52,555 bases of DNA from a virus (IMGVR_UViG_3300029998_000044:1-52555), one strand, 5' to 3'; positions 9,270 to 40,319 are shown, numbered from the stretch's first letter. Made by a program: numbers and translations. Notes: a model not told the origin generated them from the sequence alone.

Positions 9270-9298
9270 TTGACATGGTGTAATATTCATGGTAGAAT
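9270..9298 (+). promoter_or_regulatory. SigmaA promoter
   Basis: TTGACA-17bp-TAGAAT. Confidence 0.75.
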
Positions 9299-10139: not shown

Positions 10140-10165
10140 TCACAACATGAAAAAATTGTGACCGA
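10136..10165 (+). repeat. 30-bp cassette-boundary site
   Basis: TTAATCACAAC-ATGAAAAA-ATTGTGACCGA. Confidence 0.8.
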
Positions 10166-10177
10166 TTGAGGGGGGGT

Positions 10178-10508: not shown

Positions 10509-10510
10509 AG

Positions 10511-10540
10511 TTACGAACAATTCAAATAAATTATTCGTAA
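10511..10540 (+). repeat. 30-bp cassette-boundary site (most symmetric copy)
   Basis: TTACGAACAAT-TCAAATAA-ATTATTCGTAA (10/11 inverted-repeat match). Confidence 0.85.
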
Positions 10541-10556
10541 TTTGAAAGGAGAAATC

Positions 10557-15277: not shown

Positions 15278-15570
15278 CTATGCCCAGAAATAATAGGGGT
15301 AGAGTGGTCAAAATAGGCATTTTTACGATGGGGCTATAGGCTGATTCCCAGACTTGATATTTTGATTTGCTCAACGGAGAGCATAGGGAAATGTGTTCAA
15401 CGTATACTTTGTTCACTAAGGGGGTAAAGTCGCTTAGAATGGCTCTAAATCGCATAAATAATCATTCTCCGTTAGACCTACTTTCAAACTCTATAGGTTT
15501 ATGTGAAAGTTTACTTTCAAACTCTATGGGTTTTTACTTTCAAACCCTATATGTCTATGACTGGATGTGC

Positions 15571-15790
15571 GAATGTTTCGAAAATTGTGAATCTTCTGAA
15601 TATTGTGAATGTTTTGAATTTTCAGACAATTCAGATTAGTGTGGGTTGTGCGAAATGTTCAAACAATTCAAACAAATAGAACAAATGAAATAATTCAGAA
15701 TATTGTGAATGTTCGGAATGGTACGAACGTTCGTGTTTTTTCCAATAATTCGAATAGTTCATACAATTCAAACAATATATCGAATTGTGT
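15571..15790. repeat. Degenerate 9-bp tandem array
   Basis: GAATGTTTC GAAAATTGT GAATCTTCT GAATATTGT GAATGTTTT GAATTTTCA GACAATTCA ... Confidence 0.75.
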
Positions 15791-17464: not shown

Positions 17465-17729
17465 TAACATATACCTAATACTATAAAGGAGGGCATTATA
17501 TGTTTACTGTGCTGGTGTATATACTCATAATACCGATTGTTATAATAAAGAACTTAGTTAAGTTTAATGGTTAACATGATATAGATAACTACATTACATG
17601 ATATAATATACTGTATAGTTATACACTAATAATGTATAGTTATACAGTATTATTATGCCCTATTATTGCATACTAATTGTATGTATAGTGTACACAATGC
17701 ACACTAATCTGACTATTCATAATATTATT

Positions 17730-17900
17730 AATTATTTTAATTGTTTCGTTTGTACGAATTGTTTGATTTGTTTTAATTGTTTAAACAATGGTGAATTGCG
17801 TGAATATTCATACCCCTCCCACTATTCAGAATATTCTGACAATGACTAATCAGTCCCATTACCAACTTCTAAATTTTCTGAACAGTTTTAGTGACCTCAA
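17730..17900. repeat. Second degenerate 9-bp array, partly reverse-complementary to the first
   Basis: AATTGTTTC GTTTGTACG AATTGTTTG ATTTGTTTT AATTGTTTA ... TTCAGAATATTCTGACAAT. Confidence 0.6.
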
Positions 17901-19239: not shown

Positions 19240-19482
19240 ATGGATATTAGAAATATAATGATTTTGTTTGATAAAACTAAATTTACAAAAGAGGAAATAG
19301 TAGCTGAATTAAAAGCTGAAGGTTATAAGCATAATTTCATATTTGCGAACAAGATAGATTTGGATTATGCGAAAGATTATATGCGAAAGTGTGAAGAAGT
19401 GTGGTGCTTCGGTGACTGTGAAGAAATGTTTATGTATATGATGGCAACAGATGAAGGTATGGATATATGGACAATGGGTTAG
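19240..19482 (+). CDS. Hypothetical protein
   Basis: ORF with RBS; CEEVWCFG motif. Confidence 0.6.
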   Translation: MDIRNIMILFDKTKFTKEEIVAELKAEGYKHNFIFANKIDLDYAKDYMRKCEEVWCFGDCEEMFMYMMATDEGMDIWTMG

Positions 19483-21023
19483 AATTAACTAAAGTAGAGG
19501 AATTGGTGAAGGTGGTAATACCTAATCTTGAAGATGAACTTTCAAGAGAGGGTGTTGCCCCTTCTGACCTTGTAGAATTATATAACCTCTATGTGGAAGT
19601 ATTGAGAATGGTTGCTCCATATGATTTTGTTTCTTATAACAAATATCTAGAATTGGATGAAGACCATTCGTCACCAACTAAAGCATTTTATCACCACAGG
19701 AAAAAGCACCTAGCTGAAATGTTTGAAGCTTTTAATGATATGGAAACTTACGATAAGTATGATGTATTATTAATTTCACTTCCTCCAAGAACTGGTAAGA
19801 CCACTACTGGTATACGGTTTTTGTCTTGGATTATAGGAAAGTACCCAGAGCATACTGAAATGGCAACTTCCTATTCAGATAGTATAACAACTTCCTTTTA
19901 TATGGGAGTCATGGAGATAATTCAGAACCCACGATACAATGAGATATTCCCAGATGCTCCACTTGTATCACAGAACGCAAAAAGGGAAGAAATCTGGTTA
20001 AAGGTGGCAAAGAGATATCCATCTATAACCTTTGTTCCTATTGGTGGTTCAATGACTGGTAGATGTGAAGCTGGTAAGTATTTGTATTGCGATGACTTGG
20101 TGTCTGGTATTGAAGAAGCACTTTCAATTACTAGACTTGATAAATTATGGCAGATGTATACAGTTAACTGTAAACAGAGAAAGAAGGATAAATGCAAGGA
20201 AGTACATTTGGCTACAAGATGGTCTGTCCATGATGTAATCACTAAACTTGGAACTGCACATGAGGATAATCCTCGATGCAAGGTTATTAATGTATCGTGT
20301 TATGACGAGAACGAGGAAAGCCAATTCGACTTCTTAGGTGGTTTTGGAACTGATTATTACAAGGACTTAGAAACTACAATGGATGAAGCCAGTTTTGGAG
20401 CATTGTATAAACAAGAGCCTATAGAACGAGAAGGATTATTGTACCATAAAGAGGACTTGCAGTATTTCTTTGACCTTCCAGAAGAACCAGCCGATTCAAT
20501 CGTTGCGATATGCGATAGTAAGAACATGGGTAAGGATTTTGTGTCTGCTCCTATTGGATATGTATATGGTGATACTGTATATATTGATGATGTGACTTAT
20601 AGTAATGCCCTTCCAGATATAACTAGACCAATGGTTGCTAATAAATGGGTAGAGCATAAAGTAGTTCGTGCTGATGTAGAGGTGAACAATGGTGGCAACT
20701 ACTATGCCGAGGATTTGGATGAACTAATTAAAGCCAAAGGTGGTAGAACCAGTATTAGGACTTTCTTCAGTAGCAATAACAAGCAAGTAAAGATTATAAC
20801 ATATGCTGATTATGTTGTGAAGCATTTCGTGTTCAAGCATCCTAGTAAATATTCACCGAATAGTCAATATTCCCAATTTATGAAAGATATGCTAAAATGG
20901 ACACAAATGGGTAATAATAAACATGACGATAGTGTTGATAGTATTGCGATGTTGGCACAATTAGTGCAATCATTATCAGATGGACAGATTAAGTTTTTAG
21001 ACCGTAGAAAATTAGGAATATAG
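19467..21023 (+). CDS. terL: Terminase large subunit
   Basis: Walker A PPRTGKT, Walker B LYCDD, TRW..HD, LY.QEP, nuclease HDDSVDS. Confidence 0.93.
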   Translation: MDNGLELTKVEELVKVVIPNLEDELSREGVAPSDLVELYNLYVEVLRMVAPYDFVSYNKYLELDEDHSSPTKAFYHHRKKHLAEMFEAFNDMETYDKYDVLLISLPPRTGKTTTGIRFLSWIIGKYPEHTEMATSYSDSITTSFYMGVMEIIQNPRYNEIFPDAPLVSQNAKREEIWLKVAKRYPSITFVPIGGSMTGRCEAGKYLYCDDLVSGIEEALSITRLDKLWQMYTVNCKQRKKDKCKEVHLATRWSVHDVITKLGTAHEDNPRCKVINVSCYDENEESQFDFLGGFGTDYYKDLETTMDEASFGALYKQEPIEREGLLYHKEDLQYFFDLPEEPADSIVAICDSKNMGKDFVSAPIGYVYGDTVYIDDVTYSNALPDITRPMVANKWVEHKVVRADVEVNNGGNYYAEDLDELIKAKGGRTSIRTFFSSNNKQVKIITYADYVVKHFVFKHPSKYSPNSQYSQFMKDMLKWTQMGNNKHDDSVDSIAMLAQLVQSLSDGQIKFLDRRKLGI

Positions 21024-21034
21024 GAGGTAAATAA

Positions 21035-22528
21035 ATGATTCTCAAAGGACGTAGAAAAATAACTAGTGAATTAACTCCAGAAGAACTTCACGATAAGTCT
21101 AAGTTGGCTAAATTACTTAATACTAGCCGAGTAATTCACTTACAGAATAAATCTGAGATAGATTATTTGGTTAATTATGGTAAAGGTGACCAGCCTGTTT
21201 TATTAAAAACTAAGGTAGTCAGAGATGAAATAAACCATAAGATAGTCATGAATCATGCTCAGATGATAACTAGAAGTGTTAATGGATACTTTCTTGGAAC
21301 ACCAATTCAGTTTATACAAAGTGGATATACGGATAAGAAAGAACAGATAGATATGCTCAATAGGTTTGTACAGTATGAGGACAAGTCCTCGTCTGATAGT
21401 GAACTTGGAGTATTTCAAAGTATGACTGGTACTGCATATAGGATAATCTATACCGATGGATTATTTGCAGATGAAGTTCCATTTGAGGAAAGAACTCTTG
21501 ACCCATCAACTACTTATGTGGTATATCAGAATAATATTGCAGAGAAACCATTATTGGGGGTAACTTATTATACCATAGTTAATGAGGATAATGCAATAGT
21601 TGGAATGAAAATATATGCATATACTGATAAGGGTAGATATGAAATAGTAACTGACGATTTAAGTGGACTTGTAAATGAAGATTCAATGATTGACTTTCTT
21701 CCATACTCAGTTGGTGGTATTCCAATAATAGAATATCCTAACAATATGTGGAGAATAGGTGACTGGGAATTATGTATTGGACTCATGGATGCCATAAATG
21801 ATTTACAGTCTGGCAGACTTGATGATATAGACCAAGTTATACAGTCATTGTTAGTATTTATAAATGCTGATGTAGACCAAAATGGATATGACCAGATGCG
21901 TGAGAGAGGTATCGTTCTACTGAAGAATACTACTGGAAATCCAAGTTCCGTTCAGACTATGAGTAATGAACTTGACCATACTGGTATGAATTTGTTTTCA
22001 CAGGAATTAGAATCTATGTTGTATGCCTTGATTGGTATACCAGATAGGAATAACCGTTCTGGTGGAGGTGGAGATACTGGACAGGCAGTTGAACTTAGAG
22101 ATGGCTGGGCAGATTTGGAAACACTTGCTAGGAATAAGGAACTTGCATTTAAGAAGTCAGAGAAACAGGCTTTGAGAATCATTCTCAATATAGTGAATGG
22201 TAAGTTAGGTTTTGACCTTTCTTTATTGGATATTGATATTAAATTCTCAAGAAATAAGAGCAATAACCTTTTGGTTAAAACACAGGGATATACAACTCTG
22301 TTGGCTACAAAAACTCTTAGTCCAGAAGATTGCTTGACAATCGTTGATATTGTTTCAGATGTAAATGAGTATATATCAAGAGGTAAAGCTTTTTGGGGAA
22401 CTGCATTTGCTGGATTAGAACAAGCTACTGTTGCTGTTGATTCTAGTAAAGTAGCATTGGAAACTGCAAAAAATCCTCCAGAACCAGTTGTACAGAAGGA
22501 AGTAGTTAAAAAGGAGGTTAGTAAATAA
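21035..22528 (+). CDS. Portal protein (SPP1 type)
   Basis: Follows terL; GYFLG.PI, IPIIEYPNN, LIDA-like motif. Confidence 0.9.
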   Translation: MILKGRRKITSELTPEELHDKSKLAKLLNTSRVIHLQNKSEIDYLVNYGKGDQPVLLKTKVVRDEINHKIVMNHAQMITRSVNGYFLGTPIQFIQSGYTDKKEQIDMLNRFVQYEDKSSSDSELGVFQSMTGTAYRIIYTDGLFADEVPFEERTLDPSTTYVVYQNNIAEKPLLGVTYYTIVNEDNAIVGMKIYAYTDKGRYEIVTDDLSGLVNEDSMIDFLPYSVGGIPIIEYPNNMWRIGDWELCIGLMDAINDLQSGRLDDIDQVIQSLLVFINADVDQNGYDQMRERGIVLLKNTTGNPSSVQTMSNELDHTGMNLFSQELESMLYALIGIPDRNNRSGGGGDTGQAVELRDGWADLETLARNKELAFKKSEKQALRIILNIVNGKLGFDLSLLDIDIKFSRNKSNNLLVKTQGYTTLLATKTLSPEDCLTIVDIVSDVNEYISRGKAFWGTAFAGLEQATVAVDSSKVALETAKNPPEPVVQKEVVKKEVSK

Positions 22529-23712
22529 TGGCAGAACAGAGAGTAATAGCAATTGATTTAGATAATATATCCACTACACTGACCTCCGATACCCTTATTA
22601 GACAGGGTGAGAGTAAAGCTTCAAGGCTTGAAATCACTCTCAATGAGGAATTTACTGGATTTGATTATGTGCTTGTATTCCAAATTAATGATAACATACC
22701 TTATTCGGCATCTGTAACACCAAGTGAAGGTATCTTATCATTTGAATTAAGTAATACAGTAACTTTTGATTCTGGATATTTAAAAGTTGAACTTCAAGCA
22801 TTTAATGTTGATGATGAGATATTAATAAAAACTTGTGTGTTCACATTCAAAATTAAAATGTCGGTAGAAGGAACACCTATTGATATACCTATATCTGATT
22901 ACACAGCTTATATTCAATTGGTCGAGTATTATATGAATAAAGATATATATGACCCACAGGGTATAGTATCTGACGCATTTGATATGGATAATATGACCGA
23001 TGGTGTGGATAAAGTGGCAATGTTAGTTAGTGAACGAATAAAATTAAATGAACTATCTACTGGTGGTAATTCGGCATATGCTAATCAAATTGATGCCCCA
23101 CCTATTGACCCTAATATTATAGATGATGAGTTTGATGGTGATTCTCTTGATGATAAATGGATATGGGTAAACCAAGGACTATCAAGTGTTTTAGTTGATA
23201 ATAGTATTATTGAATTAACTGCTGAAAATCAAGATAATGGAGTTGATTGTAGGGGTATAATTCAACCAGCACCTGATAGTATAGATTTCACTATTGTGAC
23301 TAAATTTTTAGGTACTAATCTTTGGAAAGATTATTCCAAAACTGGAATATTAATATCTGAATCTCCAACTGGTAAACAACTTGGTATTTGGCACGCATAT
23401 GATGGTAGTTGGAAAGGCTTGATGGGTGAATTTTTCGCAACTCCAGCTACAAGAGGTGCTTATACTTATTATGGTACACCAGTTCAAGCACAAGGTGGAT
23501 ATATTAAGACTAGGATATATAAAGTTGGTGAAATATGGTATGTTGATTTCTATTATAGTTTAAATGGATATGTTTGGATAACTTCCAAAATAGGATTGGA
23601 AATTGGGTTTACTCCAAATTATGTTGGTTTAGGATGGGACTTTGAAACAGCAGAAGTAGGAAAATCTTACTTTGATTGGTTTAGGGTTACAATTTATAAT
23701 ATTGGGTTATAG
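22528..23712 (+). CDS. BppU-like N-terminus plus lectin/ConA-like C-terminal domain (putative adsorption protein)
   Basis: IRQGE...L.I.L N-terminus; M.K.IYDP linker; DDEFDG..LD..W and FDWFRV beta-sandwich motifs. Confidence 0.6.
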   Translation: MAEQRVIAIDLDNISTTLTSDTLIRQGESKASRLEITLNEEFTGFDYVLVFQINDNIPYSASVTPSEGILSFELSNTVTFDSGYLKVELQAFNVDDEILIKTCVFTFKIKMSVEGTPIDIPISDYTAYIQLVEYYMNKDIYDPQGIVSDAFDMDNMTDGVDKVAMLVSERIKLNELSTGGNSAYANQIDAPPIDPNIIDDEFDGDSLDDKWIWVNQGLSSVLVDNSIIELTAENQDNGVDCRGIIQPAPDSIDFTIVTKFLGTNLWKDYSKTGILISESPTGKQLGIWHAYDGSWKGLMGEFFATPATRGAYTYYGTPVQAQGGYIKTRIYKVGEIWYVDFYYSLNGYVWITSKIGLEIGFTPNYVGLGWDFETAEVGKSYFDWFRVTIYNIGL

Positions 23713-23747
23713 TGTAAATGAATAATTAATAAAGGAGATTGATAAAT

Positions 23748-24284
23748 ATGGCAATAGTAAAAATATCAATAGATAATTTAGAAAGCAATGTAAAGCATTA
23801 TGTATGTCTTCCAACAGATGCAGTTTCTACCTTCGCAACGGATATAGGTGATGGGTCAACAATGTCGGTGAGAAATGCAGTATCACTTAAGCAAATTGCT
23901 AGACTTAGATTCGATGGAGTTGTTTGGCAGTATATTGAAGAACCAGAAGTTGAAGATTTATTCGATGTTAAAATAGTTGCTGGAAGTGGTACTGGTTTAG
24001 ACACTTATGCAATTGATTTGGAGAACAAGGCATTTAAGTATATCCAGATAGCAATAGCTGATACGGATTCCAAAACCTTGACAGTAGCTAATGTTCCTAC
24101 GGAAGCACAGTTTGAACTTAAAGTAGTAACAACTGCAACTGGTACAATGGGTGCATGGATGGCTGGAATAGTATGGGATGCTGGAACTGCTCCTACTCTT
24201 ACAACTGGTAAAACTATTAGATTGAAATTCTACACAGTAAACGGTGGAACTGCTTGGCATGGTAAAATACTCGGTACTTGGTAG
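23748..24284 (+). CDS. Virion structural/fibre-like protein
   Basis: C-terminal W..G.APTLT.GK...L.F.T..GG..W.G. Confidence 0.55.
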   Translation: MAIVKISIDNLESNVKHYVCLPTDAVSTFATDIGDGSTMSVRNAVSLKQIARLRFDGVVWQYIEEPEVEDLFDVKIVAGSGTGLDTYAIDLENKAFKYIQIAIADTDSKTLTVANVPTEAQFELKVVTTATGTMGAWMAGIVWDAGTAPTLTTGKTIRLKFYTVNGGTAWHGKILGTW

Positions 24285-24348
24285 TGAATAGGGAGATTAA
24301 ATTATCCCTTTCCATTGTAATAAATAATTGTAAATTTAGGAGGTTAAT

Positions 24349-24543
24349 ATGAGTGTAAAAGAAGTATTTAGAAATGAAGGAAGTAATATAAAAACATATA
24401 TGTGTTTGACAACTGATTTATCATCTACTTATCCAACTAATATAGCGTGTGACCCATTAAGTAAAATGATAGTGGTCAATGTTAGTACACATATAACAGA
24501 TAAGTATTTATTCTTTGATGGTACTAATTGGAATGAAGCATAA
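24349..24543 (+). CDS. Small protein paralogous to the N-terminus of the 23748 protein
   Basis: SNIKTYMCLTTD...FDGTNW versus SNVKHYVCLPTD...FDGVVW. Confidence 0.65.
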   Translation: MSVKEVFRNEGSNIKTYMCLTTDLSSTYPTNIACDPLSKMIVVNVSTHITDKYLFFDGTNWNEA

Positions 24544-24555
24544 AGGAGGTAAATT

Positions 24556-25965
24556 ATGGAAAGACAAGATGATTTTAAAACAATATTAGAGATGCACAAT
24601 GCTAATATTGGAAGATTAAATAGCAAACAATTGGAAAATATTGTTCGTGAACAGTACAAAGTTTACGGTTGTTTTTGGAACAAAGGCTCAAGCCCAACAT
24701 TGACAAGAATGCAGGACGCAAGGGGAGCAGTGGCAAACGCAGGAGTTGATGCAGTAAAAGCCTACAACGAATTTGATTTAACGCCGTTGTTTAAAGACTT
24801 TACGGAGGTTACTGACAGCTACGGCAATGTGTTTGTAAGAATCCCTAAGATGTATATTAAAAAGGTTGATGCAAGTGGCTACAAATCAAGACAGATAAGC
24901 AGAACGCCATTTACAGGAGCATATCTGCCAGAATGCTTTAAAAACCAAGCAACAGGCTTAGAACTTGATTATATTGATGTGGGTAAATATGTAGCCACTA
25001 CCACGGACGGTACAAAGCTTGAATCAAAAGCTGGCGCATATCCCCTGATAAACAAAAATATAGTACAGTTCAGGGATATGGCAAAAGCTAATAATATTGG
25101 CGCGATAAAAGGTTATCAGATAATGGACATCCATGTTATGGATTTATTGCAGACATTGTTTTTGATAGAGTTTGCAACGATAAACAGCCAGAGTATAGTT
25201 GCGGGATATACAAATGGCCAATATACGGATACGCACCTGATAACATTAGTTACGACAAACACGAACACAGCCATAGTGGCAAATGCAACAGCCGCGTTAT
25301 ATGCAGTAGGACAAGTAATATCAGTTGGCTCAACGCAAGGCGGAAATCAGAGATTTTACGGACGAACAATAACGGCAATAGGAGCAAACGATTCAGGCGG
25401 CGCAGGAAATGCCGTAATAACTTTTGATGGTGTGGTGGCAAGTTTATCCGTAAATGACAGACTGTATAATACGGGCATGAAAACAGGGTTTAGTTCTGCC
25501 ATAACCACAAGCGTTGGCAGCCCTACATCAAACTCAGATGGTAAAAAATCATTCGTTTATCATGGCATAGAATCGCTATACGGTGATGTTTGGCAGTTTG
25601 TAGATGGTCTTAATATTAACGAGAAGCAAGCGTGGGTTTGCAAAAATGCAGATAACTACGCAAGTAATGTGTTCGCGGCACCTTACGAGCAGTTAGGATA
25701 TGTCAACGGAAATACTGATGGATATACAACGGCAATGGGTTATGATGCAAATTTACCGTTTTGTGAACTACCAGTGGCAGTCGGCGGCGCATCAACAACT
25801 TATTACTCGGATTATTATTATCAGACCACCGGTCAGAAGGTGGCTCGTGTTGGCGGCAGCTGGAGCAATGGCGGTAATGCCGGTTTGTTCTTCTGGAGTC
25901 TGTACTACACGTCCTCCTATGCCGGCGTCGACATCTCCTCCCGCCTTCTTAGAAAAGCCCTGTGA
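24556..25965 (+). CDS. Receptor-binding/fibre protein with C-terminal CLec (FGE-like) DGR-target-type domain
   Basis: VFVRIPK, GIE.LYG.VWQFVDG, RVGGSW.NG..AGLF.W.L....S.....ISSRL. Confidence 0.8.
   Translation: MERQDDFKTILEMHNANIGRLNSKQLENIVREQYKVYGCFWNKGSSPTLTRMQDARGAVANAGVDAVKAYNEFDLTPLFKDFTEVTDSYGNVFVRIPKMYIKKVDASGYKSRQISRTPFTGAYLPECFKNQATGLELDYIDVGKYVATTTDGTKLESKAGAYPLINKNIVQFRDMAKANNIGAIKGYQIMDIHVMDLLQTLFLIEFATINSQSIVAGYTNGQYTDTHLITLVTTNTNTAIVANATAALYAVGQVISVGSTQGGNQRFYGRTITAIGANDSGGAGNAVITFDGVVASLSVNDRLYNTGMKTGFSSAITTSVGSPTSNSDGKKSFVYHGIESLYGDVWQFVDGLNINEKQAWVCKNADNYASNVFAAPYEQLGYVNGNTDGYTTAMGYDANLPFCELPVAVGGASTTYYSDYYYQTTGQKVARVGGSWSNGGNAGLFFWSLYYTSSYAGVDISSRLLRKAL
24621..24650 (+). 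repeat. 30-bp site embedded in frame in a CDS
   Basis: TAGCAAACAAT-TGGAAAAT-ATTGTTCGTGA; right arm is the exact reverse complement of TCACGAACAAT. Confidence 0.7.
25840..25950 (+). other. DGR variable-region-like segment (no TR or RT in window)
   Basis: 37 consecutive codons with no third-position A, GC-rich, ending TCCCGCCTTCTT. Confidence 0.75.
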
Positions 25966-26026
25966 GGGGGATAGGGGGTAAAGCCTGTAGTCAAAATACA
26001 CAAAGCAAGGAAGGTGGTTAGTAACC

Positions 26027-26299
26027 ATGACAAAAGAAATAAGATATGCAACAATACCTGAAACATTTGACGAAACAAAGCACTATATTGAGCAGTTGCC
26101 AGCAGTAGATATGGGTGAGTATCTGTGGGTTGATGTTATAGTCAAGAATTTAGATTTAACATCAACACCAGAGTCGGCACCCGTGACAAGCGAGCCATAT
26201 GTCCCAGAGCCTACAACGGAAGAAAATATAACATTAATGGCTGAACAATTAACTTTAGCACAAACTGCACTTGACTTTATATTGATGGGGGTTGTGTAA
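26027..26299 (+). CDS. Fibre-associated small protein
   Basis: PEPT.EE....L...Q.ALD pattern typical of genes following fibre genes. Confidence 0.6.
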   Translation: MTKEIRYATIPETFDETKHYIEQLPAVDMGEYLWVDVIVKNLDLTSTPESAPVTSEPYVPEPTTEENITLMAEQLTLAQTALDFILMGVV

Positions 26300-26434
26300 A
26301 TGAGCGGATATTTAGCAATGAGAATAGAATTAGGTAGATTGGATTATGCAGCAGTTGTGGCAAAATACACACAGTTTAAGGCTGAAATAGACGGAATACT
26401 TATCAATGACGGATTTCAAAGTTTAATAGTTTAA
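26300..26434 (+). CDS. 44-aa fibre-associated protein (not in ORF track)
   Basis: MSGYLAMRIELGRLDYAAVVAKYTQFKAEIDGILINDGFQSLIV; stop codon in site arm. Confidence 0.7.
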   Translation: MSGYLAMRIELGRLDYAAVVAKYTQFKAEIDGILINDGFQSLIV

Positions 26435-26461
26435 CTCGCAATTGATTAATATTGTTCGTAA
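26432..26461 (+). repeat. 30-bp cassette-boundary site
   Basis: TAACTCGCAAT-TGATTAAT-ATTGTTCGTAA. Confidence 0.8.
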
Positions 26462-26470
26462 CATTATTAT

Positions 26471-26497
26471 GGGAGATTGGATTCTCCCTAATTTTTT
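26471..26497 (+). terminator. Rho-independent terminator
   Basis: GGGAGA-TTGGAT-TCTCCC-TAATTTTTT. Confidence 0.7.
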
Positions 26498-26502
26498 AAT
26501 AT

Positions 26503-26531
26503 ATTATATCACAATGGAATAATATTGTCAA
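26503..26531 (-). promoter_or_regulatory. Consensus sigmaA promoter on the minus strand (antisense)
   Basis: TTGACA-17bp-TATAAT with TG. Confidence 0.55.
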
Positions 26532-26607
26532 TAGTCGGTTATAGTGTTTATGAAAATAATGTGATGGGGCGAGAGTCATGTCATGGGATTTAATAGGAGG
26601 AAGAAAG

Positions 26608-27210
26608 ATGGCAGATGTATTAACACAGGAACAGATTGACAAGTTGGTAGCAGATAAGATAGCAGAAGCAACTAAGGGATTACTTACTGAAGAAGAAGTA
26701 ACTCGCAGAGTAACTGCTGAAGCTGATAGACGAGTAGAGAGTGGTATCCAGAAAGGTCTGGAAACTAAAAAGCAAATATGGGAGAGAGAGTATGCAGAGA
26801 GATTACAACTTAGTGCAGAGGAACTTGCTCAAAAGGAATACTCAGAAAAACTTCAAAGTGTAACAGCAAAGGAGAAAGAGATTCAAAAGAAAGCAAATAA
26901 ACTCGAAGCAAAAGATATGTTATCCGAAGCATCTATTCCTAAAGCACAATATGAAAAACTACTAGGTATGCTTGTATCAGATGATGATGCTACTACAAAG
27001 GCAAATGTTCAAGGCTTTATTGATATGTATAATTCTACAAAAGTTGAATTAGAAACTTCAATAAAAAGCCAGTTCGCTAATATACCACCTCCACATACTG
27101 GTGGCAAAGATGATGTAGTAACTCAAGATTCTTTTAGGAAAATGGGATACGCAGACAAGTTAGCTTTTAAACAGGCTAATCCAGAACTTTACAAACAATA
27201 TATAAAATAA
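26608..27210 (+). CDS. Capsid scaffolding protein (DUF4355-like)
   Basis: TQEQID, EADRRV, coiled coil, C-terminal NPELY; precedes the capsid gene. Confidence 0.85.
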   Translation: MADVLTQEQIDKLVADKIAEATKGLLTEEEVTRRVTAEADRRVESGIQKGLETKKQIWEREYAERLQLSAEELAQKEYSEKLQSVTAKEKEIQKKANKLEAKDMLSEASIPKAQYEKLLGMLVSDDDATTKANVQGFIDMYNSTKVELETSIKSQFANIPPPHTGGKDDVVTQDSFRKMGYADKLAFKQANPELYKQYIK

Positions 27211-27225
27211 AGGAGATAATACAAT

Positions 27226-28242
27226 ATGGGTACAAATTTAAGTTTTCCTTATGATTCAGAGATATTCAACTATGATTGGAAAAATACACCAGATGTAATT
27301 CTTACGAGCCTTTTAGATTCTGGTGCTATGGTTAATGATAGTGAAATAGCAAATATGATTTCCAATGGTTCGAATTTCTTCACAGTTCCTTTCTACAATA
27401 TACTTGGTGGAACAGAGGATGTATACAACGGAGTAAGTAACTTTACTGGTGCTTCACTTACTGGTGGTAGCTATAGTGGTTGCGTATTCGGTAGAATGTC
27501 AAAATGGACTGCTAAATCGTTCATCAAAGACTTCAATAGTGGTGCTGACCCAATGGCACAGATAGTATCTGGAGTTGCTGGTTTCTGGCATAAAGCTAGA
27601 CAGACAAGAGTTATCGCAATTCTTGAAGCAGTATTCGGTATTACTGGAGATGCAGATTGGACTAAGCATAAGATTAATATAGCAACTACTGGTTCAACTA
27701 CTACTGATTCAAACAGAATGGGAGCAACAACTATCAATGATGCTTGTATATCAGCTTGTGGAGATATGGCTACAGACTTCACACTTGCCATCATGCATTC
27801 GAATGTTGCTAATAAACTGGCTAACCATCAGTTGCTTGAGTATAGCAAGTACACAGATGCAATGGGTATCACTAGAAATCTTCCAATAGGACAGATAAAT
27901 GGTAAGACTGTTGTAATCAATGATAATGTTCCTACTAAATCATCTTCAAGTGATACTGATGAATTTGAGTACACAACTTATGTCCTTGGACTTGGCTCAC
28001 TCAGATATGCACCAGCACCAGTTGATGTACCTTCCGAAATGGATAGAAACCCAGATACAAATGGTGGACTTGATATGATATACACTAGACTCAGAGAATG
28101 TATCCATCCTTATGGCTTCTCATTCAAGGGTGATGTTACAACTGATGTAGGTGTTCCAGATGCCGTTCTTACTGCTAGTGCTTCATACGAAAGAAAACTG
28201 CCAGCAAAGGCAATCAAAATGGTTAGAATTGTAACTAACTAG
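27226..28242 (+). CDS. Major capsid protein
   Basis: Position and size; AIMHS.VA..L, G..VVI.D..P, HPYGFSF. Confidence 0.88.
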   Translation: MGTNLSFPYDSEIFNYDWKNTPDVILTSLLDSGAMVNDSEIANMISNGSNFFTVPFYNILGGTEDVYNGVSNFTGASLTGGSYSGCVFGRMSKWTAKSFIKDFNSGADPMAQIVSGVAGFWHKARQTRVIAILEAVFGITGDADWTKHKINIATTGSTTTDSNRMGATTINDACISACGDMATDFTLAIMHSNVANKLANHQLLEYSKYTDAMGITRNLPIGQINGKTVVINDNVPTKSSSSDTDEFEYTTYVLGLGSLRYAPAPVDVPSEMDRNPDTNGGLDMIYTRLRECIHPYGFSFKGDVTTDVGVPDAVLTASASYERKLPAKAIKMVRIVTN

Positions 28243-28253
28243 TAGAGGAGATA

Positions 28254-28535
28254 ATGAGTATGTATATTTATCAGAACGGTAAGTTATATGCTCGTAAAGA
28301 TGATAAGCTAGTCGGAGTGGATTTCTGCTCCGACCAAGCTATTCCTGTTGAGGGAACTGAATGTGAACTTGCAGAAATATATCAAGACTTATCTCTTTAT
28401 GAGGTATTACGAAAGTTTCAGATTATAAATGGTAAGGATTATAAATTCCCTAGAGAGGTTGAGGTGAAAGCTGATGTCACAATCGAGCCAGTTGTCAAGC
28501 CTAAAAGAACTCCTAGGAAATCCATCAGTAAGTGA
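28254..28535 (+). CDS. Hypothetical head-associated protein
   Basis: Follows the capsid gene; basic C-terminus. Confidence 0.55.
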   Translation: MSMYIYQNGKLYARKDDKLVGVDFCSDQAIPVEGTECELAEIYQDLSLYEVLRKFQIINGKDYKFPREVEVKADVTIEPVVKPKRTPRKSISK

Positions 28536-28803
28536 TAGTATACTCCAGTTTTATCTGGATTGTGCTAGAGATATTATATGTGAGTTGAGAAACACAGATA
28601 TGATTGAACTTAAATATTTAACAATCCAAATTAGAATGGCAGTTGAAATGTACAATAAAAGTGGTGCAGAAGGTCAAACTGCTCATAGTGAAAATGGAAT
28701 TGCCAGAACCTATGAGAAAGGTGATATATCAGATTCACTTTTATCTAAGATTACTCCAGCAGTTAAAACCCCATTCTCAGAAGTTAGGATTGTTACAGTA
28801 TGA
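28474..28803 (+). CDS. Head-tail connector (adaptor)
   Basis: AVEMYNK.GAEG...HSENGI.R.Y. Confidence 0.85.
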   Translation: MSQSSQLSSLKELLGNPSVSDSILQFYLDCARDIICELRNTDMIELKYLTIQIRMAVEMYNKSGAEGQTAHSENGIARTYEKGDISDSLLSKITPAVKTPFSEVRIVTV

Positions 28804-29153
28804 GAACTTTAGGAATCAATAAAACAAAGTTATGGCTTGTTAGACAATCTGGTGTTACAGATAATTTTGATTCTGATGGATTTAAAACTGGAGAAAAGAT
28901 AAAAGTTTATAGCACACCGACAATTGTTTATATAAATATTTACCCTTCAAACGGTAAGATTGTAGAACAGATATTTGGTAAAGATTATTCATGTGATATG
29001 ATGGCAGTAAGCAACGAAGTACACTTGCTAAAAGATGATTTGTTATTCTTGTCATTACCAGTAAGTAATTATGATGAAACTTATGATTATAGATTGGACA
29101 AAATAAACAAGAGTATTAATACCACAAATTATGGATTAAGGATGCGAACTTAA
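28800..29153 (+). CDS. Head closure protein
   Basis: Synteny; D.DG..TGE...Y..P. Confidence 0.7.
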   Translation: MRTLGINKTKLWLVRQSGVTDNFDSDGFKTGEKIKVYSTPTIVYINIYPSNGKIVEQIFGKDYSCDMMAVSNEVHLLKDDLLFLSLPVSNYDETYDYRLDKINKSINTTNYGLRMRT

Positions 29154-29635
29154 TGTTTAAGGATATACAAGTAAACATAGATATTAATAATATTGATGTT
29201 GGCATTAGAGAATGGAAAGAAGTTCACGCAAAGTTTCAACGAGGTTATGAACTTGGAATAGAGGAATTAGCAATTAGAGTTGAAGGTAAGATTCAAGAGT
29301 ATTTAGATATGTATGGTCTTGGAGGTAGCGAATTATCAAGTACGGTTCACATATCAGAAGTTGAAGGTGGATTAAGAGTTGAAGTTGGCACAGACTATGC
29401 TATGTATGTTGAATATGGAACTGGTATCGTTGGTGAACAATCTCCACATCCCCATCCTTGGGCATATGATATAAACAATCATGGAGAACAAGGATGGCAG
29501 TATATTGGAAAAGATGGTAGACTTCATTGGACTATGGGTTCAGAAGCTAAACCTTTCATGTACAATTCATGGTTATGGGCAAAGCGAAGTGCATATAATA
29601 TCATAATGAAGAACATAAGAAAACAATTCAAGTAG
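29153..29635 (+). CDS. HK97 gp10-like tail completion protein
   Basis: YAMYVEYGTG, W.Y....G...WT.G..AKPFM. Confidence 0.85.
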   Translation: MFKDIQVNIDINNIDVGIREWKEVHAKFQRGYELGIEELAIRVEGKIQEYLDMYGLGGSELSSTVHISEVEGGLRVEVGTDYAMYVEYGTGIVGEQSPHPHPWAYDINNHGEQGWQYIGKDGRLHWTMGSEAKPFMYNSWLWAKRSAYNIIMKNIRKQFK

Positions 29636-29647
29636 GAGGATACGGTA

Positions 29648-30040
29648 TTGATAATTGATATAACAAATGAAGTTTTGACATACGTTCAAACTAATTACCC
29701 AACTATGAATTTATTATCTACCTATCCATCCACAACACCAGTTTTCCCATGCGTGGTAATGGAAGAAATGACTAATAACCAATTAAAGGAAACGGTTGAT
29801 AGTGATGGTGAACATCATAGTGATGTGATGATTCAAGTTGATATTTTCACTCAAGGAGATAGAAAAATATCAGATGCCAAAGCAATCAGAAAACAGATAG
29901 ATGATATAATGAGTGGTTATTATAAAATGGGTAGAACTTATTCTGGTATAACTCCAAACTTCTTGGATACAAATATATACCGATATACCTTGAGATATTC
30001 ATTTATAGTAAGTGAAAATAAAGTTATATATAGGGGGTAA
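29648..30040 (+). CDS. Tail terminator protein
   Basis: FP.V..EE..N, QVDIF, IYR..LRY. Confidence 0.8.
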   Translation: MIIDITNEVLTYVQTNYPTMNLLSTYPSTTPVFPCVVMEEMTNNQLKETVDSDGEHHSDVMIQVDIFTQGDRKISDAKAIRKQIDDIMSGYYKMGRTYSGITPNFLDTNIYRYTLRYSFIVSENKVIYRG

Positions 30041-30045
30041 AATAA

Positions 30046-30447
30046 ATGGCGGTTTCAACAGTTACTACCACACTAAATTATAAAGTTTTAGTTGGAGATA
30101 GTTATGCTAAGTTGTGCGATATAGTTAGTTATCCAGATTTGGGTTCAGCACCTTCCAAACTTGATACAACTGATTTAGCACAGACTAGTGTAAAAACTAA
30201 TATTCTTGGACTGCAAGATGCACCAGATTTAACATTTGAGTGTAATTATGATGAAGCAACGTATAACACAATAAATGCTTTGAATAAATCTACTGTATAT
30301 TTCATACAATTATTGTTTGGAACAGATGGTGCATTTACTTGGACTGGTCAAATAAGAGCATATGTAACTGGTGCTGGTGTTGACGAAGTTCGTAAAATGA
30401 GCATAGTCATTGGAACTTATACACCAATTGCATTCGCAGTAAACTAA
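30046..30447 (+). CDS. Tail tube protein, copy 1
   Basis: DI.SYPDLG..P..LDTTDL......I.GLQD...LTFECNY. Confidence 0.85.
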   Translation: MAVSTVTTTLNYKVLVGDSYAKLCDIVSYPDLGSAPSKLDTTDLAQTSVKTNILGLQDAPDLTFECNYDEATYNTINALNKSTVYFIQLLFGTDGAFTWTGQIRAYVTGAGVDEVRKMSIVIGTYTPIAFAVN

Positions 30448-30460
30448 TAGGAGGTAAATT

Positions 30461-30871
30461 ATGGCAATATTAAGTACAGCTAATACTACACTTAATTATT
30501 GTGCCACTCAAGGTGGAGTATATACGAAACTTGTTGATATAGTTTCTTATCCAGATATGGGTGCTTCTCCATCTAAGTTAGACACAACTGACCTAAGTGC
30601 TACGGTATCTAAGACTAATATTCTTGGACTGCAAGATGCACCAGATTTAACCTTTGAATGTAACTATGATGAAACAGCATATAATACTTTGAAAGGTCTT
30701 ACTGGTACTTACTGGTTTAACCTATTCTTTGGAACTGCTGGAGCAGATGGTATATTCGAATGGCAAGGAAAAATAAACGTATTTAGTACTGGTGGTGGAG
30801 TAGACGAAGTTAGAAAAATGTCTGTAGTTGTATCTAATGCTACACCAATAACTTTCGAATATTCTGCTTAA
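30461..30871 (+). CDS. Tail tube protein, copy 2
   Basis: Clear paralog of the 30046 protein. Confidence 0.85.
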   Translation: MAILSTANTTLNYCATQGGVYTKLVDIVSYPDMGASPSKLDTTDLSATVSKTNILGLQDAPDLTFECNYDETAYNTLKGLTGTYWFNLFFGTAGADGIFEWQGKINVFSTGGGVDEVRKMSVVVSNATPITFEYSA

Positions 30872-30901
30872 TAAAATAATGTGAAATTGTAGGAGGATGG
30901 A

Positions 30902-31246
30902 ATGAATATTAATATTGATGGCAAAGATGTGGAATTAGGATTCTCATATAACTCATTCAAGTATATGCAAGATTTTGACCTAAGTGAATTGGTAGGAATG
31001 GAAGGTAAACCTTTCAAGATTATAACAATTACGGAAAGCCTATTAATAGGAGCAGTTAATTGTGACCCTAAAGTTAAGTTTCCAGAAGCCAAAGTTACAG
31101 AGTTCCTTGAGGAATATGTAGTTGAAAATTCTATAGCTGACTTGTTAGAGGAATTAATGAAACTGTTGGAGGATTCACATTTTTTCAAGTCACTTCAAAA
31201 GACGAACCAGAAAGCACCAATGAGTGTGCCGAAGAAGAAGAAATAA
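30902..31246 (+). CDS. Tail assembly chaperone (gpG-like)
   Basis: Between tube genes and TMP; slippery heptamer near its end. Confidence 0.8.
   Translation: MNINIDGKDVELGFSYNSFKYMQDFDLSELVGMEGKPFKIITITESLLIGAVNCDPKVKFPEAKVTEFLEEYVVENSIADLLEELMKLLEDSHFFKSLQKTNQKAPMSVPKKKK
31180..31186 (+). other. Programmed -1 frameshift site
   Basis: T TTT TTC in frame; the -1 frame is open into the 31288-31632 ORF. Confidence 0.8.
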
Positions 31247-37490: not shown

Positions 37491-38369
37491 ATGATTAATG
37501 AAATTTTGTATATAGACCCATCCCATCAGCATGAAAATCAAGGTGTTGCTGGATATGGAACAGAAGCAGATAATGCGTTCGTAATTGCTAAAAGAGTTTA
37601 TGAAATACTCCAAGGTTCTGGTTTGTATAAAGCAGTTCATCTTGGTGGATTTGGATTAACACTTGCTCAAGCCATTGCAGAAGCTAATAGTTTGGGTGCT
37701 ACACTAATTCTGGATATTCATTCAGATGCTGGTGGTAGTAGAGGATGTACTGGATTATACAAATCTGCAAAAGGAAAAGAGTTTATACAATGTGTTTATA
37801 ATAAAGTGTCGGCTCTTACACCATCTTCTGATAGAGGTGTATCACAGAGAACTGATTTAGGTATTCTTAACCAGACCAAAGGTGTTGCTGGATTGATAGA
37901 GATGTTTTTCCATGATTCACCAGAAGATGTTGCGTTTTTCGAATCACACAAAGAAGATTTCGCAGTTGCAATAGCACAGGGTATATGTGATTATTTCAAA
38001 GTAGCATTACCTTCTGGTGGAGTAACTCCAGTACCAGCACCGATAGTTAAGCCAGTTTCTGGTGGGAATGAGTTTGTAAAAGCATTGCAGAATGAATGTA
38101 ATGCACAGGGTTTTAAAGATGTAAACAGAAGTCCATTAGGTGTTGATGGAATTGCTGGTAATCACACACTTGAAGCACTTGGAAAAGTTATACTAAAAGA
38201 AGGAAGTGCTGGAAACTTTGTTAAAATATTACAAGGTAAGATTGGTGTAACAGCCGATGGTAAGTTTGGAGTAATAACAAAAACAAAAGTAATTGAATTT
38301 CAGAAGTCAGCAAGACTATCTCCAGATGGTATCGTTGGGTATAACACTTGGTATGCACTTACCAGATAG
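37491..38369 (+). CDS. Endolysin: Amidase_3 with PG-binding_1 domains
   Basis: DPSH, GTE, DIHSDA, LIEMFFHD; DGI.G..T repeats. Confidence 0.9.
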   Translation: MINEILYIDPSHQHENQGVAGYGTEADNAFVIAKRVYEILQGSGLYKAVHLGGFGLTLAQAIAEANSLGATLILDIHSDAGGSRGCTGLYKSAKGKEFIQCVYNKVSALTPSSDRGVSQRTDLGILNQTKGVAGLIEMFFHDSPEDVAFFESHKEDFAVAIAQGICDYFKVALPSGGVTPVPAPIVKPVSGGNEFVKALQNECNAQGFKDVNRSPLGVDGIAGNHTLEALGKVILKEGSAGNFVKILQGKIGVTADGKFGVITKTKVIEFQKSARLSPDGIVGYNTWYALTR

Positions 38370-38380
38370 GAGATGGTATT

Positions 38381-39019
38381 ATGAAACTTGCTATAATGGG
38401 TAATAGTATTATATCGGTAGATGCTATGGTAAAATATTTACTATCCAAAAATAGTAATCCGAAAATTGACATTTCAGTAAAGGAATTCTGTCAATTGTAT
38501 ATAGATTTAGGTTTATTAGAAGGGGTAAGGGGAGATATTGCCTTTGCCCAATCTTGTGAAGAAACTGGACATTTCAAATTTGGTGGAATGGTAACTCCAG
38601 ATATGCACAATTATGGTGGACTTGGTGCTACAGATGGTTCTCCTAAAGGTACTGGTGGAAGGTTTCCAGATGCTAGGACTGGTATTCTCGCTCAAATACA
38701 GCATCTCAAAGCATATGCTAGTACAGAAGACTTGAACAAATATGATATAATGGTTGACCAAAGATTCAATCTTGTAACTAGAGGTATAGCACCATATGTG
38801 GAAGACCTTGTTGGAAGATGGGCAACTAATCCATCATATGCTAAAAATATATATGATATTTATAATGAACTAGCTAAGACAAAAGTTGAACCAGTAATAG
38901 AACCAGTTAAACCAATAATTAAACCAATAGAACCAATTAAACCAGTAGTAATAACAACACCATATAAAAAGATAGTCAGTAATGTTAGGAAGTATTTCAA
39001 AAATATATTCATAGGTTAG
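38381..39019 (+). CDS. Glucosaminidase (GH73-like) peptidoglycan hydrolase
   Basis: AFAQSC.ETG...FGG.V....HNY.GLGA, AQIQHL.AYA, WAT.P.Y. Confidence 0.85.
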   Translation: MKLAIMGNSIISVDAMVKYLLSKNSNPKIDISVKEFCQLYIDLGLLEGVRGDIAFAQSCEETGHFKFGGMVTPDMHNYGGLGATDGSPKGTGGRFPDARTGILAQIQHLKAYASTEDLNKYDIMVDQRFNLVTRGIAPYVEDLVGRWATNPSYAKNIYDIYNELAKTKVEPVIEPVKPIIKPIEPIKPVVITTPYKKIVSNVRKYFKNIFIG

Positions 39020-39518: not shown

Positions 39519-40319
39519 ATGGAAAAACATATATTTAATTATGTAAGAGATACAATAGATTTAAGAGATTATAAATTTTCAAAAGCAGTTGGACAAAAAG
39601 TAGAAGTACCTTCCAGTATAGACTTATCTCCTAAGATGCCTAAGATTTTTAATCAGTTGACATTAGGTAGTTGTTCATCGAACTCTACTGCAAGAGGATT
39701 AATGTTTGCTAGGAACGATACTGAAAGTGTACTTTCAAGACTGTTTCAGTACTACAAGACAAGAGAACTTGAAGGAACTATTCCAGAAGATAGTGGAGCG
39801 AGTAACAGAAATGCTATAAAGTCAACTAATAAGTTTGGAATATGTAAAGAAGAATTAATGCCATATGAAATATCTAAGTTTACAGAAGCACCTACAGAAG
39901 AAGCAGTATTAGAAGCTATGAACCACAAGTCCCATTCTTACTACTCATGTGATTCATTGGATGATGTATTCCAAGCACTAGCACAGGGTTATCCTGTTGT
40001 TATTGGAATGGAAGTATTTGAATCATTTGAAACCAAAACTGTAGCAAGAACTGGAAAAATGGTAATGCCTAGTATGACTGAAACTATATTGGGTGGTCAT
40101 AGTGTATTGATAGAAGGTAAATTTGACAACATGAAAGTTAGCAAGTTGACATTCTTCAGAAAAATAGCAAACTTCCTGTTTGGAACTAAGATGCACGTCA
40201 ACAAAGGGTATTTAAAAGTAGCCAATAGTTGGGGTGAAGAATGGGGAGATAAGGGATATTTTTATATGCCATACGAATATTTTGAAAAATATGTGTTCGA
40301 TTGTTGGTGTATAGTATAA
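39519..40319 (+). CDS. Papain-like C1 cysteine protease
   Basis: Q..LGSC, GGHSV, NSWG..WGDKGY catalytic motifs. Confidence 0.9.
   Translation: MEKHIFNYVRDTIDLRDYKFSKAVGQKVEVPSSIDLSPKMPKIFNQLTLGSCSSNSTARGLMFARNDTESVLSRLFQYYKTRELEGTIPEDSGASNRNAIKSTNKFGICKEELMPYEISKFTEAPTEEAVLEAMNHKSHSYYSCDSLDDVFQALAQGYPVVIGMEVFESFETKTVARTGKMVMPSMTETILGGHSVLIEGKFDNMKVSKLTFFRKIANFLFGTKMHVNKGYLKVANSWGEEWGDKGYFYMPYEYFEKYVFDCWCIV

Follow-up and report, generated by a model that had tools for sequence, protein, structure and literature searches.

Diversity-generating retroelements (DGRs), whose hallmark is an adenine-mutagenic repeat downstream of the target gene together with a reverse transcriptase (RT), have among their variable proteins with a C-type-lectin (CLec) fold the Mtd of Bordetella phage BPP-1. 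Invertible tail-fibre segments and shufflons are represented by the G segment of Mu and the C segment of P1 (Gin/Cin) and by the R64 shufflon (Rci). Non-adjacent DGR targets are known, yet those of phage DGRs lie within the phage (PMC5758913). For the PeSLs of T4-type phages (a sigma-70 promoter with a strong stem-loop), recombination in the AT-rich centre has been proposed, with conserved regulatory motifs as preferred crossover patches (PMC2839356). According to De Paepe et al. (2014; PMC3945230), mosaics between diverged sequences are promoted by recombinases of the Rad52-like group, to which Erf belongs; in that work such "relaxed" recombination concerned temperate coliphages and prophages. 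The ingredients, DGR targets, the swapping of receptor-binding modules and motif-associated shuffling, are known. What is unusual in the viral record IMGVR_UViG_3300029998_000044:1-52555, a single contig of 52,555 bp rated 100% complete and "linear" (the whole of this stretch is called the window below), is their combination around a 469-aa gene at 24556-25965: an orphan DGR target placed among the head genes, a swap that took place very recently between unrelated phages that co-occur, and a joint lying in an in-frame copy of a motif from an intergenic family.

Scanning viral contigs with this gene gave 39 loci. Six of them (L001-L004, L007 and L008, the L001 type) are 97.0-97.9% identical to the window at the nucleotide level over 24625-25961 and 94.0% over 26012-26160, and the rest of the 52.5-kb window has no match in any of the six. 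Their version of the gene starts with a different 10-aa N-terminus, to which the 21-codon N-terminus of the window has no similarity, and is preceded by unrelated genes. A second type (L005 and L006) is 82-84% identical over 24649-25943 and 26025-26172, so that the L001- and L005-type comparisons agree on two borders, 24625/24649 on the left and 26160/26172 on the right. With the whole 24.8-kb record G004, which is of the L001 type, the window has only three nucleotide segments in common; beyond the target gene the proteins are only weakly similar (32-38%), namely two HNH-endonuclease-like proteins, one ERCC4-like protein and one small open reading frame (ORF). Mismatches between the window and L001 number nine within 24621-24650 (dense up to 24648) and three more by 24669, become sparse after that, and are absent over 25255-25844. 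At the protein level, bodies at least 86% identical to each other carry four different N-termini, all joined at the same helix, and the protein P0001, obtained from a different source, matches the window in N-terminus and body alike (460 of 469 residues identical). No match to 21035-28242 was found by blastn among the INPHARED phages, and tblastn of the 469-aa protein against the same phages gave only five weak partial hits (at most 43% identity, none covering 80%). A search of metagenome contigs with a pattern for the 5' end of the body recovered only the known L005- and L001-type contexts, with no new N-termini at the DNA level.

The borders can also be seen in base composition. The best two-boundary CpG island within 21035-31000 is 24645-25945 (46.9 versus 11.0 CpG/kb, log-likelihood ratio 33.9), the GC island is 24685-26220 (0.433 versus 0.342), and among all 1.4-kb segments of the genome the gene body ranks first for both GC and CpG, with a GC content of about 0.426-0.428, 0.431 at third codon positions, and a CpG observed/expected ratio of 1.01. 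Native-looking composition is found in the first 21 codons of the target gene, the last third of the following 90-aa gene, the 44-aa gene after it, and the preceding 64-aa gene (GC 0.277, 5.1 CpG/kb). The flanks of the L001-type loci have a GC content of 0.41-0.42, similar to that of the gene body, and the window genome one of 0.348; the body is therefore at home in an L001-type genome and foreign in the window.

A first-pass annotation, made from the sequence alone, had placed the left joint of a swapped-in cassette at a 30-bp site (24621-24650) read through in frame about 22-32 codons into the gene. The site is read as NSKQLENIVR(E) by codons 22-32, exactly as described, and L001-type identity begins inside it, at 24625, after a different N-terminus. 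The foreign composition and lateral exchange of the gene body were likewise correctly recognized, and the change in codon and CpG style, expected near 24640, falls on the left at 24645, where the CpG change point is the sharpest of the neighbourhood; on the right, where it was expected near 26445, the break lies at 25945-26220, or 220-500 nt earlier. The unit that was exchanged is accordingly not 24621-26461, as had been proposed, but about 24645-26160, that is, the gene body plus two thirds of the 90-aa gene. The cassette had been described as a CLec protein body with two fibre-associated genes, of which the body and part of the 90-aa gene belong to the exchanged core and the 44-aa gene lies outside it.

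What had escaped that annotation is that the 469-aa gene is a DGR target without its retroelement. The protein belongs to phrog_5302 ("tail protein", 2e-46) and has 781 homologues at E<=1e-30. An AlphaFold (AF2) model made from 52 homologues (pLDDT 79.9, pTM 0.83) predicts N-terminal helices at residues 4-15 (low confidence) and 23-33 and a body from residue 37, and the only Foldseek hits in the PDB at E<=1e-3 are three chains of 5vf4, the Thermus aquaticus TaqVP (E 1e-6, probability 1.0). The CLec body suggested earlier is thus recovered, as a predicted C-type-lectin-like fold of the DGR variable proteins with the variable region (VR) at its C-terminal end. In 11 of the 15 relatives checked, a template repeat (TR) located 50-100 nt downstream repeats the last ~110 nt of the gene; TR/VR mismatches fall at TR adenines in 198 of 220 cases, and 8 of the 11 downstream ORFs scanned contain RVT_1 (reverse transcriptase), which makes these homologues demonstrable DGR targets.

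None of this machinery accompanies the gene in the window. Sensitive self-BLAST of 25700-25990 against the window revealed no second copy that could be a TR, and a six-frame search of the genome at E<=1 found no RVT_1, nor did the Pfam scans of ORFs. An IUPAC pattern for the cognate TR, R-degenerate over the VR, retrieved from the viral contigs only the VRs of three L001-type contigs. An RT is also absent from the L001-type fragments and from the complete L005-type genome G005, and no TR lies close to the gene in L001 or L005. In the window, a complete 52.5-kb genome with neither TR nor RT, the gene is an orphan DGR target. It resembles the known DGR variable proteins in fold (with a match to TaqVP only) and in its variation at adenine columns, and its relatives keep the order target, TR, RT; it differs from the known systems in that the window, like the complete G005, has no RT, in that the window has no TR, and in that the gene sits in the head cluster and not at the end of the tail module.

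The VR itself still carries the mark of diversification. After 590 identical bases (25255-25844) come 12 mismatches between the window and L001 at 25845-25933, of which eight are at columns with A in at least seven of nine TRs, against a background of 28 of 111 columns, these TRs being related and not cognate ones. Similarly, P0001 differs from the window by nine residues, eight of them within residues 426-460. These 12 clustered differences, and a P0001 that differs almost only there, indicate that the VR was rewritten after the last common ancestor of the alleles, either just before the retroelement was lost or in trans. A G-run resembling the one in DGR-bearing relatives persists in the window behind the stop codon, and L001 and L005 share a different segment there, a pattern which suggests that the retroelement was lost independently. 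That both the exchange and the DGR-target identity hold is, in our judgement, close to certain.

The genomic slot occupied by the gene can be reconstructed from the phages that share the structural backbone of the window. There are 19 loci with the same portal, 11 of which were examined. The closest of them, L040 (62-88% protein identity across head and tail genes), has a homologue (178 aa) of the 181-aa gene followed after 43 nt by the scaffold gene, and in five other backbone relatives the portal is directly followed by the scaffold. The 64-, 469-, 90- and 44-aa genes are present in none of the ten backbone relatives that reach the scaffold gene. More generally, the space between portal and scaffold (21035-26577 compared with L040-L056) is a hypervariable slot that holds 0, 1, 2 or 6 genes depending on the relative. 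L040 has one terminator hairpin between the 178-aa gene and the scaffold promoter and the window has two (24291-24308 and 26471-26488), a duplication that delimits the gained module as about 24309-26470, including the 64-aa gene and the leader of the 469-aa gene. The N-terminal peptide can hence not be called resident, as had been supposed, since L040 lacks it along with everything else in the module, from the 64-aa gene up to the second site. Two nested events are evident, the gain of a fibre module in the hypervariable slot and the later replacement of its core.

The smaller genes of the module have histories of their own. The 64-aa protein is a paralogue of the N-terminal part of the 181-aa protein (40% identity over 60 aa, E 2e-8), and L005 encodes a 44%-identical homologue of it just upstream of its target gene. 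Homologues of the 90-aa protein follow the target or the RT in L001, L005, L009, L010, L015, L023, L024, L034 and L039. At the position of the 44-aa gene, the alignment shows unrelated sequence in L001 and L005. Searches of the viral contigs with the 64-aa protein and with the Erf protein of the window found no relatives.

The in-frame site belongs to a family of imperfect dyads of ~30 bp, in which an 8-nt A-rich spacer separates a 9-nt left half with CAAT or CAAC at its end from a 9-nt right half that opens with ATTG or ATGG. The family spans the repeat families D2, D3, D7, D8 and D11, and its 13 further copies, located at 2.2-10.5 kb and around 52 kb, all share the strand of the genes; most of them separate the stop codon of one early gene from the ribosome-binding site (RBS) of the next. 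A position weight matrix (PWM) built on 11 other copies, with both test sites excluded, gives 20.0 bits at 24632(+), inside the leave-one-out range of true members (12.1-24.4); in 200 Markov-2 random genomes, scores of 20.0 bits and above came up at a rate of 0.005 per strand. With a covariance model (CM) of 13 copies, 24620-24651(+) scores 25.3 bits (E 0.01) and 26431-26462(-) 21.5 bits (E 0.066); the PWM values at this right-end site are 23.4 (minus) and 15.6 (plus). The latter site is a look-alike that starts at the stop codon of the 44-aa ORF and lies 9 nt before a terminator-like hairpin (26471-26488). It had been assumed to close the unit just before a terminator; the look-alike and the hairpin 3' of it are in place, but the exchange already ends at 26160, where there is no motif. 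In L001 the equivalent of the right-end site (4636-4667) scores 27.5 bits with the CM on the minus strand, so its position is conserved at the cassette end; the left half of the window site pairs perfectly with the right half of the L001 site, and the right half of the window site is the variant seen at 24640 and 52105. The L001 and L005 equivalents of the in-frame site have PWM scores of 6.5 and 8.1 bits and CM scores below 11 bits.

A 12-mer is exactly shared between 24637-24648 and 26448-26459 and has a third copy with one mismatch at 52102 (three copies with one mismatch allowed versus 0.45 expected, a number reached in 1 of 100 shuffles). Beyond the window, G004 has seven motif copies at E<=1, six of them directly before an RBS and start codon, and the backbone relatives G001-G003 have one or two weak hits. 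The dyad symmetry is genuine though modest: 70% of cells pair, sliding the partners lowers this to 26-46%, and a value as high as the observed one arose in 14 of 500 shuffles. Of the 17 loci in the viral contigs that contain a 17-mer of the motif, only L080 aligned to the window, and the other 16 are apparently coincidental. Literature searches, which were not directed at this group of phages, yielded no account of a motif of this kind.

Some functions for the motif were considered and rejected. A stable RNA hairpin is contradicted by RNAalifold, which gives no consensus structure, with single-sequence energies of 0 to -6.8 kcal/mol and 2 of 12 copies unfolded, and Rfam matches only a tRNA in the genome. 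A promoter for the factor of extracytoplasmic-function (ECF) type encoded at 41735-42199 was also discarded. This ECF-like sigma-70 family factor (TIGR02937, 2.9e-9) is conserved in G001-G003, where only the one or two weak motif hits occur, and the link is further weakened by the lack of a homologue in G004 (a 58%-complete fragment with seven copies) and in the complete G005. Several early copies do fit the arrangement AAC, 16/17 nt, CGT/CGA, which we take to be reminiscent of ECF-sigma promoters. The factor itself is probably a late-gene regulator of the lineage.

Homology also breaks at copies of the same motif elsewhere in the genome, at 4002, 4401/4407, 5467 and 52413. A 99.4% match to G004 over 3848-4002 stops within the copy at 3981-4012, just after the spacer. 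The 130-aa gene cassette that follows (4012-4401) is 93% identical to L080 and has motif copies on both sides, and the internal repeat D8 ends inside the copies at 4385 and 5446. The same cassette is duplicated (3990-4121 and 52421-52555), with 92.6% identity over 135 nt and 99% over a 110-nt core at 4012-4121. Its second version, again behind a motif copy, runs off the end of the record, which may have been cut within a repeat or may reflect terminal redundancy; a search of the viral contigs with the 130-aa protein returned only the L080 contig again. Overall, 5 of 12 homology-end loci (merged within 12 nt) are at most 5 nt from a motif copy, and about 0.14 would be expected, given that the motif ±5 nt makes up 1.15% of the genome.

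In layout, these cassette borders resemble the PeSLs. Both have a short conserved motif between small early genes, insertions, duplications and replacements that end at its copies, and cassettes flanked by copies, and recombination in an AT-rich centre fits the ends of homology in the window. An intergenic repeated motif with replacement borders at its copies is indeed what we find (13 early copies and 5 of 12 ends). Unlike the PeSLs, the window motif is an imperfect dyad and not a sigma-70 promoter with a strong stem-loop, and promoters or terminators only adjoin the copies at 5446, 9201 and 26431. The contigs of the sequencing runs recorded no circular joints of the sort that excised mini-circles with a chimeric motif would give. 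The genome also differs, being a low-GC, siphophage-like one from peat metagenomes, with one copy in frame in a structural gene.

The explanation that we favour, with moderate confidence, is a homology-driven mosaic exchange between co-occurring phages, in which the left crossover took place in or at the in-frame motif and the products were filtered by selection. A 2.2-kb module (the 64-, 469-, 90- and 44-aa genes and the right-end motif) was gained between the 181-aa head-associated gene and the scaffold, and very recently its core (~24645-26160) gave way to the allele of a co-occurring phage that has a higher GC content and is otherwise unrelated. The replacement may have occurred by relaxed recombination during co-infection, plausibly mediated by the Erf-type annealing protein and the exonuclease of the phage itself. 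On the left, the motif copy in helix 2 would have served as a patch of shared sequence; on the right, the crossover would have fallen in the linker of the 90-aa protein, where no motif is present; and selection would have spared only in-frame joints at domain boundaries. As in the relaxed recombination of the coliphages, the window has an Erf protein and an exonuclease and the exchanged fragment has its borders in short residual similarity, the role of Erf here being a putative one. The outcome is best read as a host-recognition module traded between phages, not as a switch within one genome. As for a causal role of the motif in the left crossover, we regard the case for and against it as evenly balanced.

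There are several points that weigh against this explanation. At least one crossover did without a motif, as there is none at the right border (26160-26172), and the low scores of the L001 and L005 equivalents mean that the donor side offered only a poor version of the motif. Homologues with as little as ~58-65% identity still keep the helix that the site encodes (S-x-x-L-x-x-I), and part of the motif likeness (CAATTG and ATT, from codons Q-L and I) is consequently ancestral coding sequence. The gradual decay of identity across the left site argues against a precise cut and fits homologous recombination. The joint coincides with a boundary between the modelled helix 23-33 and the body from residue 37, so that selection alone could be sufficient. 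The count of junctions is biased, L080 having been found via the motif, and drops to 2 of 7 when L080 and the internal repeats are set aside. Finally, a link between Erf, or any other protein, and the motif is conjectural.

Alternatively, selection at the domain boundary may have been all that mattered. Ordinary homologous or illegitimate recombination between diverged alleles would have produced the joints without guidance by the motif, the surviving joints would be those where chimeras still fold (in the 469-aa protein between the docking helices at the N-terminus and the body, in the 90-aa protein in its linker), and the motif likeness of 24620-24651 would be a by-product of ancestral codons, or regulatory. 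The right joint without motif, the helix conserved in distant homologues, the predicted domain boundary at residues 33-37 and the poor motif matches in L001 and L005 all count in its favour, as do the two borders common to the L001- and L005-type comparisons, which are what the limits of a functional module predict, and the many N-terminal domains (Collagen, BppU_N, TIG, Big) that members of the family carry on the same body. It has to face, however, that a 20-bit PWM match, expected 0.005 times per strand per genome, is located exactly on the junction, and that the window-specific codons V-R complete a 9-mer right half identical to the copies at 26443 and 52097. Nor do protein domains explain the breaks in the non-coding motif copies (4002, 4401/4407, 5467 and 52413). 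We consider this explanation possible but unlikely.

A more far-reaching proposal, and in our opinion an improbable one, is that the motif is a portable recombination element of unrelated peat phages, which would delimit the early cassettes and act as an in-frame plug-in point for the body, and that the orphan VR is rewritten in trans by the DGR of a co-infecting phage or of the host. If true, rewriting in trans would explain how alleles with identical flanks come to differ only at template-adenine positions with no TR or RT at hand.

A dedicated site-specific system seems very improbable to us. Its motif copies would be att- or attC-like sites with the 12-mer as crossover core, and a recombinase would insert or switch a start-less cassette in frame behind a resident leader, as in shufflons or the Mu G segment. 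The exact 12-mer direct repeat flanking the unit agrees with this, and so does the fact that left and right halves of the motif combine differently among copies. In four comparisons (window/G004 at 3993, D8, window/L080 at 4397, and window/L001 at the right-end site), moreover, the left homology stops just after the 8-nt spacer, which could hint at a fixed crossover point. Against it, no integrase, invertase or other site-specific recombinase was found by Pfam among 73 plus-strand ORFs (of ~44 aa or more) and 10 minus-strand ORFs (of 72 aa or more), or by PHROGs among 32 ORFs. The right borders of composition and homology stop 270-490 nt short of the second site, this second site scores better when inverted, and the identity decays gradually across the left one. 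The 52.5-kb genome contains no alternative C-terminal cassette and no second copy of the body. With neither recombinase nor alternative cassette, the shufflon-like host-range switching first suggested for the locus is unsupported, and the variation is found between genomes. The likeness to shufflons and invertible segments is limited to a recombination-associated site within a host-recognition coding region and to one N-terminus with different C-termini; the window differs from them in having no recombinase gene among the scanned ORFs, no alternative segments and no invertible arrangement.

Regarding the distribution of these phages, the stretch was found in 24 listed runs labelled peat metagenome, nine of which may be where this DNA came from. 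Both phage types are represented by contigs in all four runs examined, with branch points at 24630-24699 and 26060-26160, which indicates that the exchange is recent and took place between phages sharing a habitat; they probably also share a host. Cover gaps in X12 (24762-25762 and after 26225) and in X19 (at the ends) are not interpretable, and the SNP (single-nucleotide polymorphism) patterns of the body contigs are patchy and not readable as haplotypes, as contigs collapse variants. At the start of the 469-aa gene (24543-24576), X15 and X19 have short contigs that match it with four differences and continue into unrelated sequence on both sides; these may represent a third context or a chance similarity. 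That the window contig is only a chimera, routed by the assembler through the gene of a co-occurring L001-type phage, is extremely improbable, for although both types occur in the same runs, SNP patterns differ from run to run and the contig graph collapses over ~24700-26060, such that short-read assemblies cannot phase the middle of the body with the flanks, window-type flank contigs enter the body for 50-75 nt and carry SNPs of their own there (0 differences in record 1, which reaches 24699, and in record 6, which begins at 26086), the two flank depths add up to about the depth of the body (X10, 15.2+9 versus 21.6; X15, 6.5+10.6 versus 14.8), the window-type VR contig of X12 has a depth of 23.6 versus 24.2 for the window-type flank, and P0001, from another source, has the same fusion.

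Table 1. Positions of the exchanged module, its neighbours, the motif copies and the candidate recombination genes in the window.
Feature	Coordinates	Strand	Basis or remark
Motif copy	2260-2291	+	CM 27.4 bits, early region
Motif copy	3035-3066	+	CM 34.7 bits
Erf-family single-strand annealing protein	3279-3986	+	PF04404 ERF 1.7e-9; candidate catalyst of short-homology recombination
Motif copy	3981-4012	+	99.4% G004 match ends at 4002; 93% L080 match begins at 4012
Motif copy	4385-4416	+	L080 match ends at 4401, internal repeat D8 at 4407
Motif copy	4403-4434	+	CM 29.4 bits
Motif copy	5136-5167	+	CM 30.7 bits
Motif copy	5446-5477	+	D8 and L080 match end at 5467/5468; perfect sigma-70-type promoter 5482-5510 follows
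Motif copy	9007-9038	+	CM 30.0 bits
Motif copy	9201-9232	+	followed by terminator 9230-9254 and promoter 9270-9298
Motif copy	10135-10166	+	CM 36.4 bits
Motif copy	10510-10541	+	CM 36.4 bits
Large terminase	19467-21023	+	gene order
SPP1-type portal	21035-22528	+	gene order
394-aa protein	between portal and 181-aa gene	+	gene order
181-aa protein, fibre-like C-terminus	23739-24284	+	gene order
Terminator hairpin, degenerate left copy	24291-24308	+	left edge of the module absent from L040 (alignment)
64-aa gene, part of inserted module	24349-24543	+	absent from L040
469-aa gene, DGR-type variable (receptor-binding) protein, CLec-like fold	24556-25965	+	ORF, phrog_5302, predicted fold
Lineage-specific N-terminal 21 codons of the 469-aa gene	24556-24620	+	GC 0.262, 0 CpG
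In-frame dyad-motif copy	24620-24651	+	encodes helix 2, residues 23-33; homology and composition junction
Recently exchanged core (gene body and first two thirds of 90-aa gene)	24645-26160	+	nucleotide identity to L001 type, GC/CpG island
VR equivalent of DGR target	25841-25951	+	aligns with VRs of TR-bearing relatives
90-aa gene	26027-26299	+	N-terminal domain in exchanged core; C-terminal third lineage-specific
44-aa gene	26300-26434	+	phrog_8908, 1.3e-9; outside exchanged core
Right-end motif copy	26431-26462	-	scores higher on minus strand
Terminator hairpin 26471-26488 and T-run, intact right copy	26471-26498	+	backbone sequence resumes here
Scaffold	26578-27210	+	gene order
Major capsid protein	27226-28242	+	gene order
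PD-(D/E)XK-like exonuclease (DUF3799)	43764-44522	+	PF12684 6.8e-59; candidate partner of Erf
Motif copy	52085-52116	+	CM 35.9 bits; family D11; closest to in-frame site, 81% over 31 nt
Motif copy	52412-52443	+	start of duplicated 130-aa gene cassette and of L080 match

The scanned genes are on the plus strand throughout. On the minus strand, just beyond the module, 26503-26531 reads as a perfect sigma-70-type promoter (12/12, with an upstream TG) directed leftwards into the terminator and the cassette, and the equivalent place in L040 likewise reads as a minus-strand promoter; an antisense transcript could be produced from this predicted element. In the early region, the gene at 5544-5864, which has a PemK/MazF-like toxin domain (PF02452, 5.5e-27), is preceded by the promoter at 5482-5510 and a motif copy. 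Further along, there are clusters of short tandem repeats (15479-15719 and 17675-17766, with 9-nt and ~25-33-nt periods) and a 64-nt inverted repeat pair set 2 kb apart; these repeats resemble iterons or a replication or packaging origin. Two tandem paralogous genes for major-tail-protein-like products (30046-30447 and 30461-30871) contain repeats that are 77-90% identical, and two or three such genes are likewise found in relatives, among them L040, L041 and L043. The cell-wall hydrolases comprise two Amidase_3 proteins with different binding domains and one glucosaminidase (208-933, 37491-38369 and 38348-39019), and there are also a papain-like peptidase (39519-40319) and a single tRNA gene (46914-46985; Rfam RF00005, 69.2 bits).

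The receptor-binding modules largely set the host range of tailed phages, and their moves between unrelated phages are usually inferred from old, blurred mosaics. Here we have a case caught early, in which a 1.5-kb host-recognition core is still 97-98% identical between two co-occurring phages whose structural genes are unrelated, and its borders are resolved to a few tens of bases. Motif-guided shuffling, so far documented for T4-type phages, becomes testable in a very different group and in an in-frame structural gene. Lastly, the gene is a DGR target separated from its retroelement, and yet alleles that are nearly identical still differ in the VR, a situation relevant to the spread and decay of genes diversified by DGRs.

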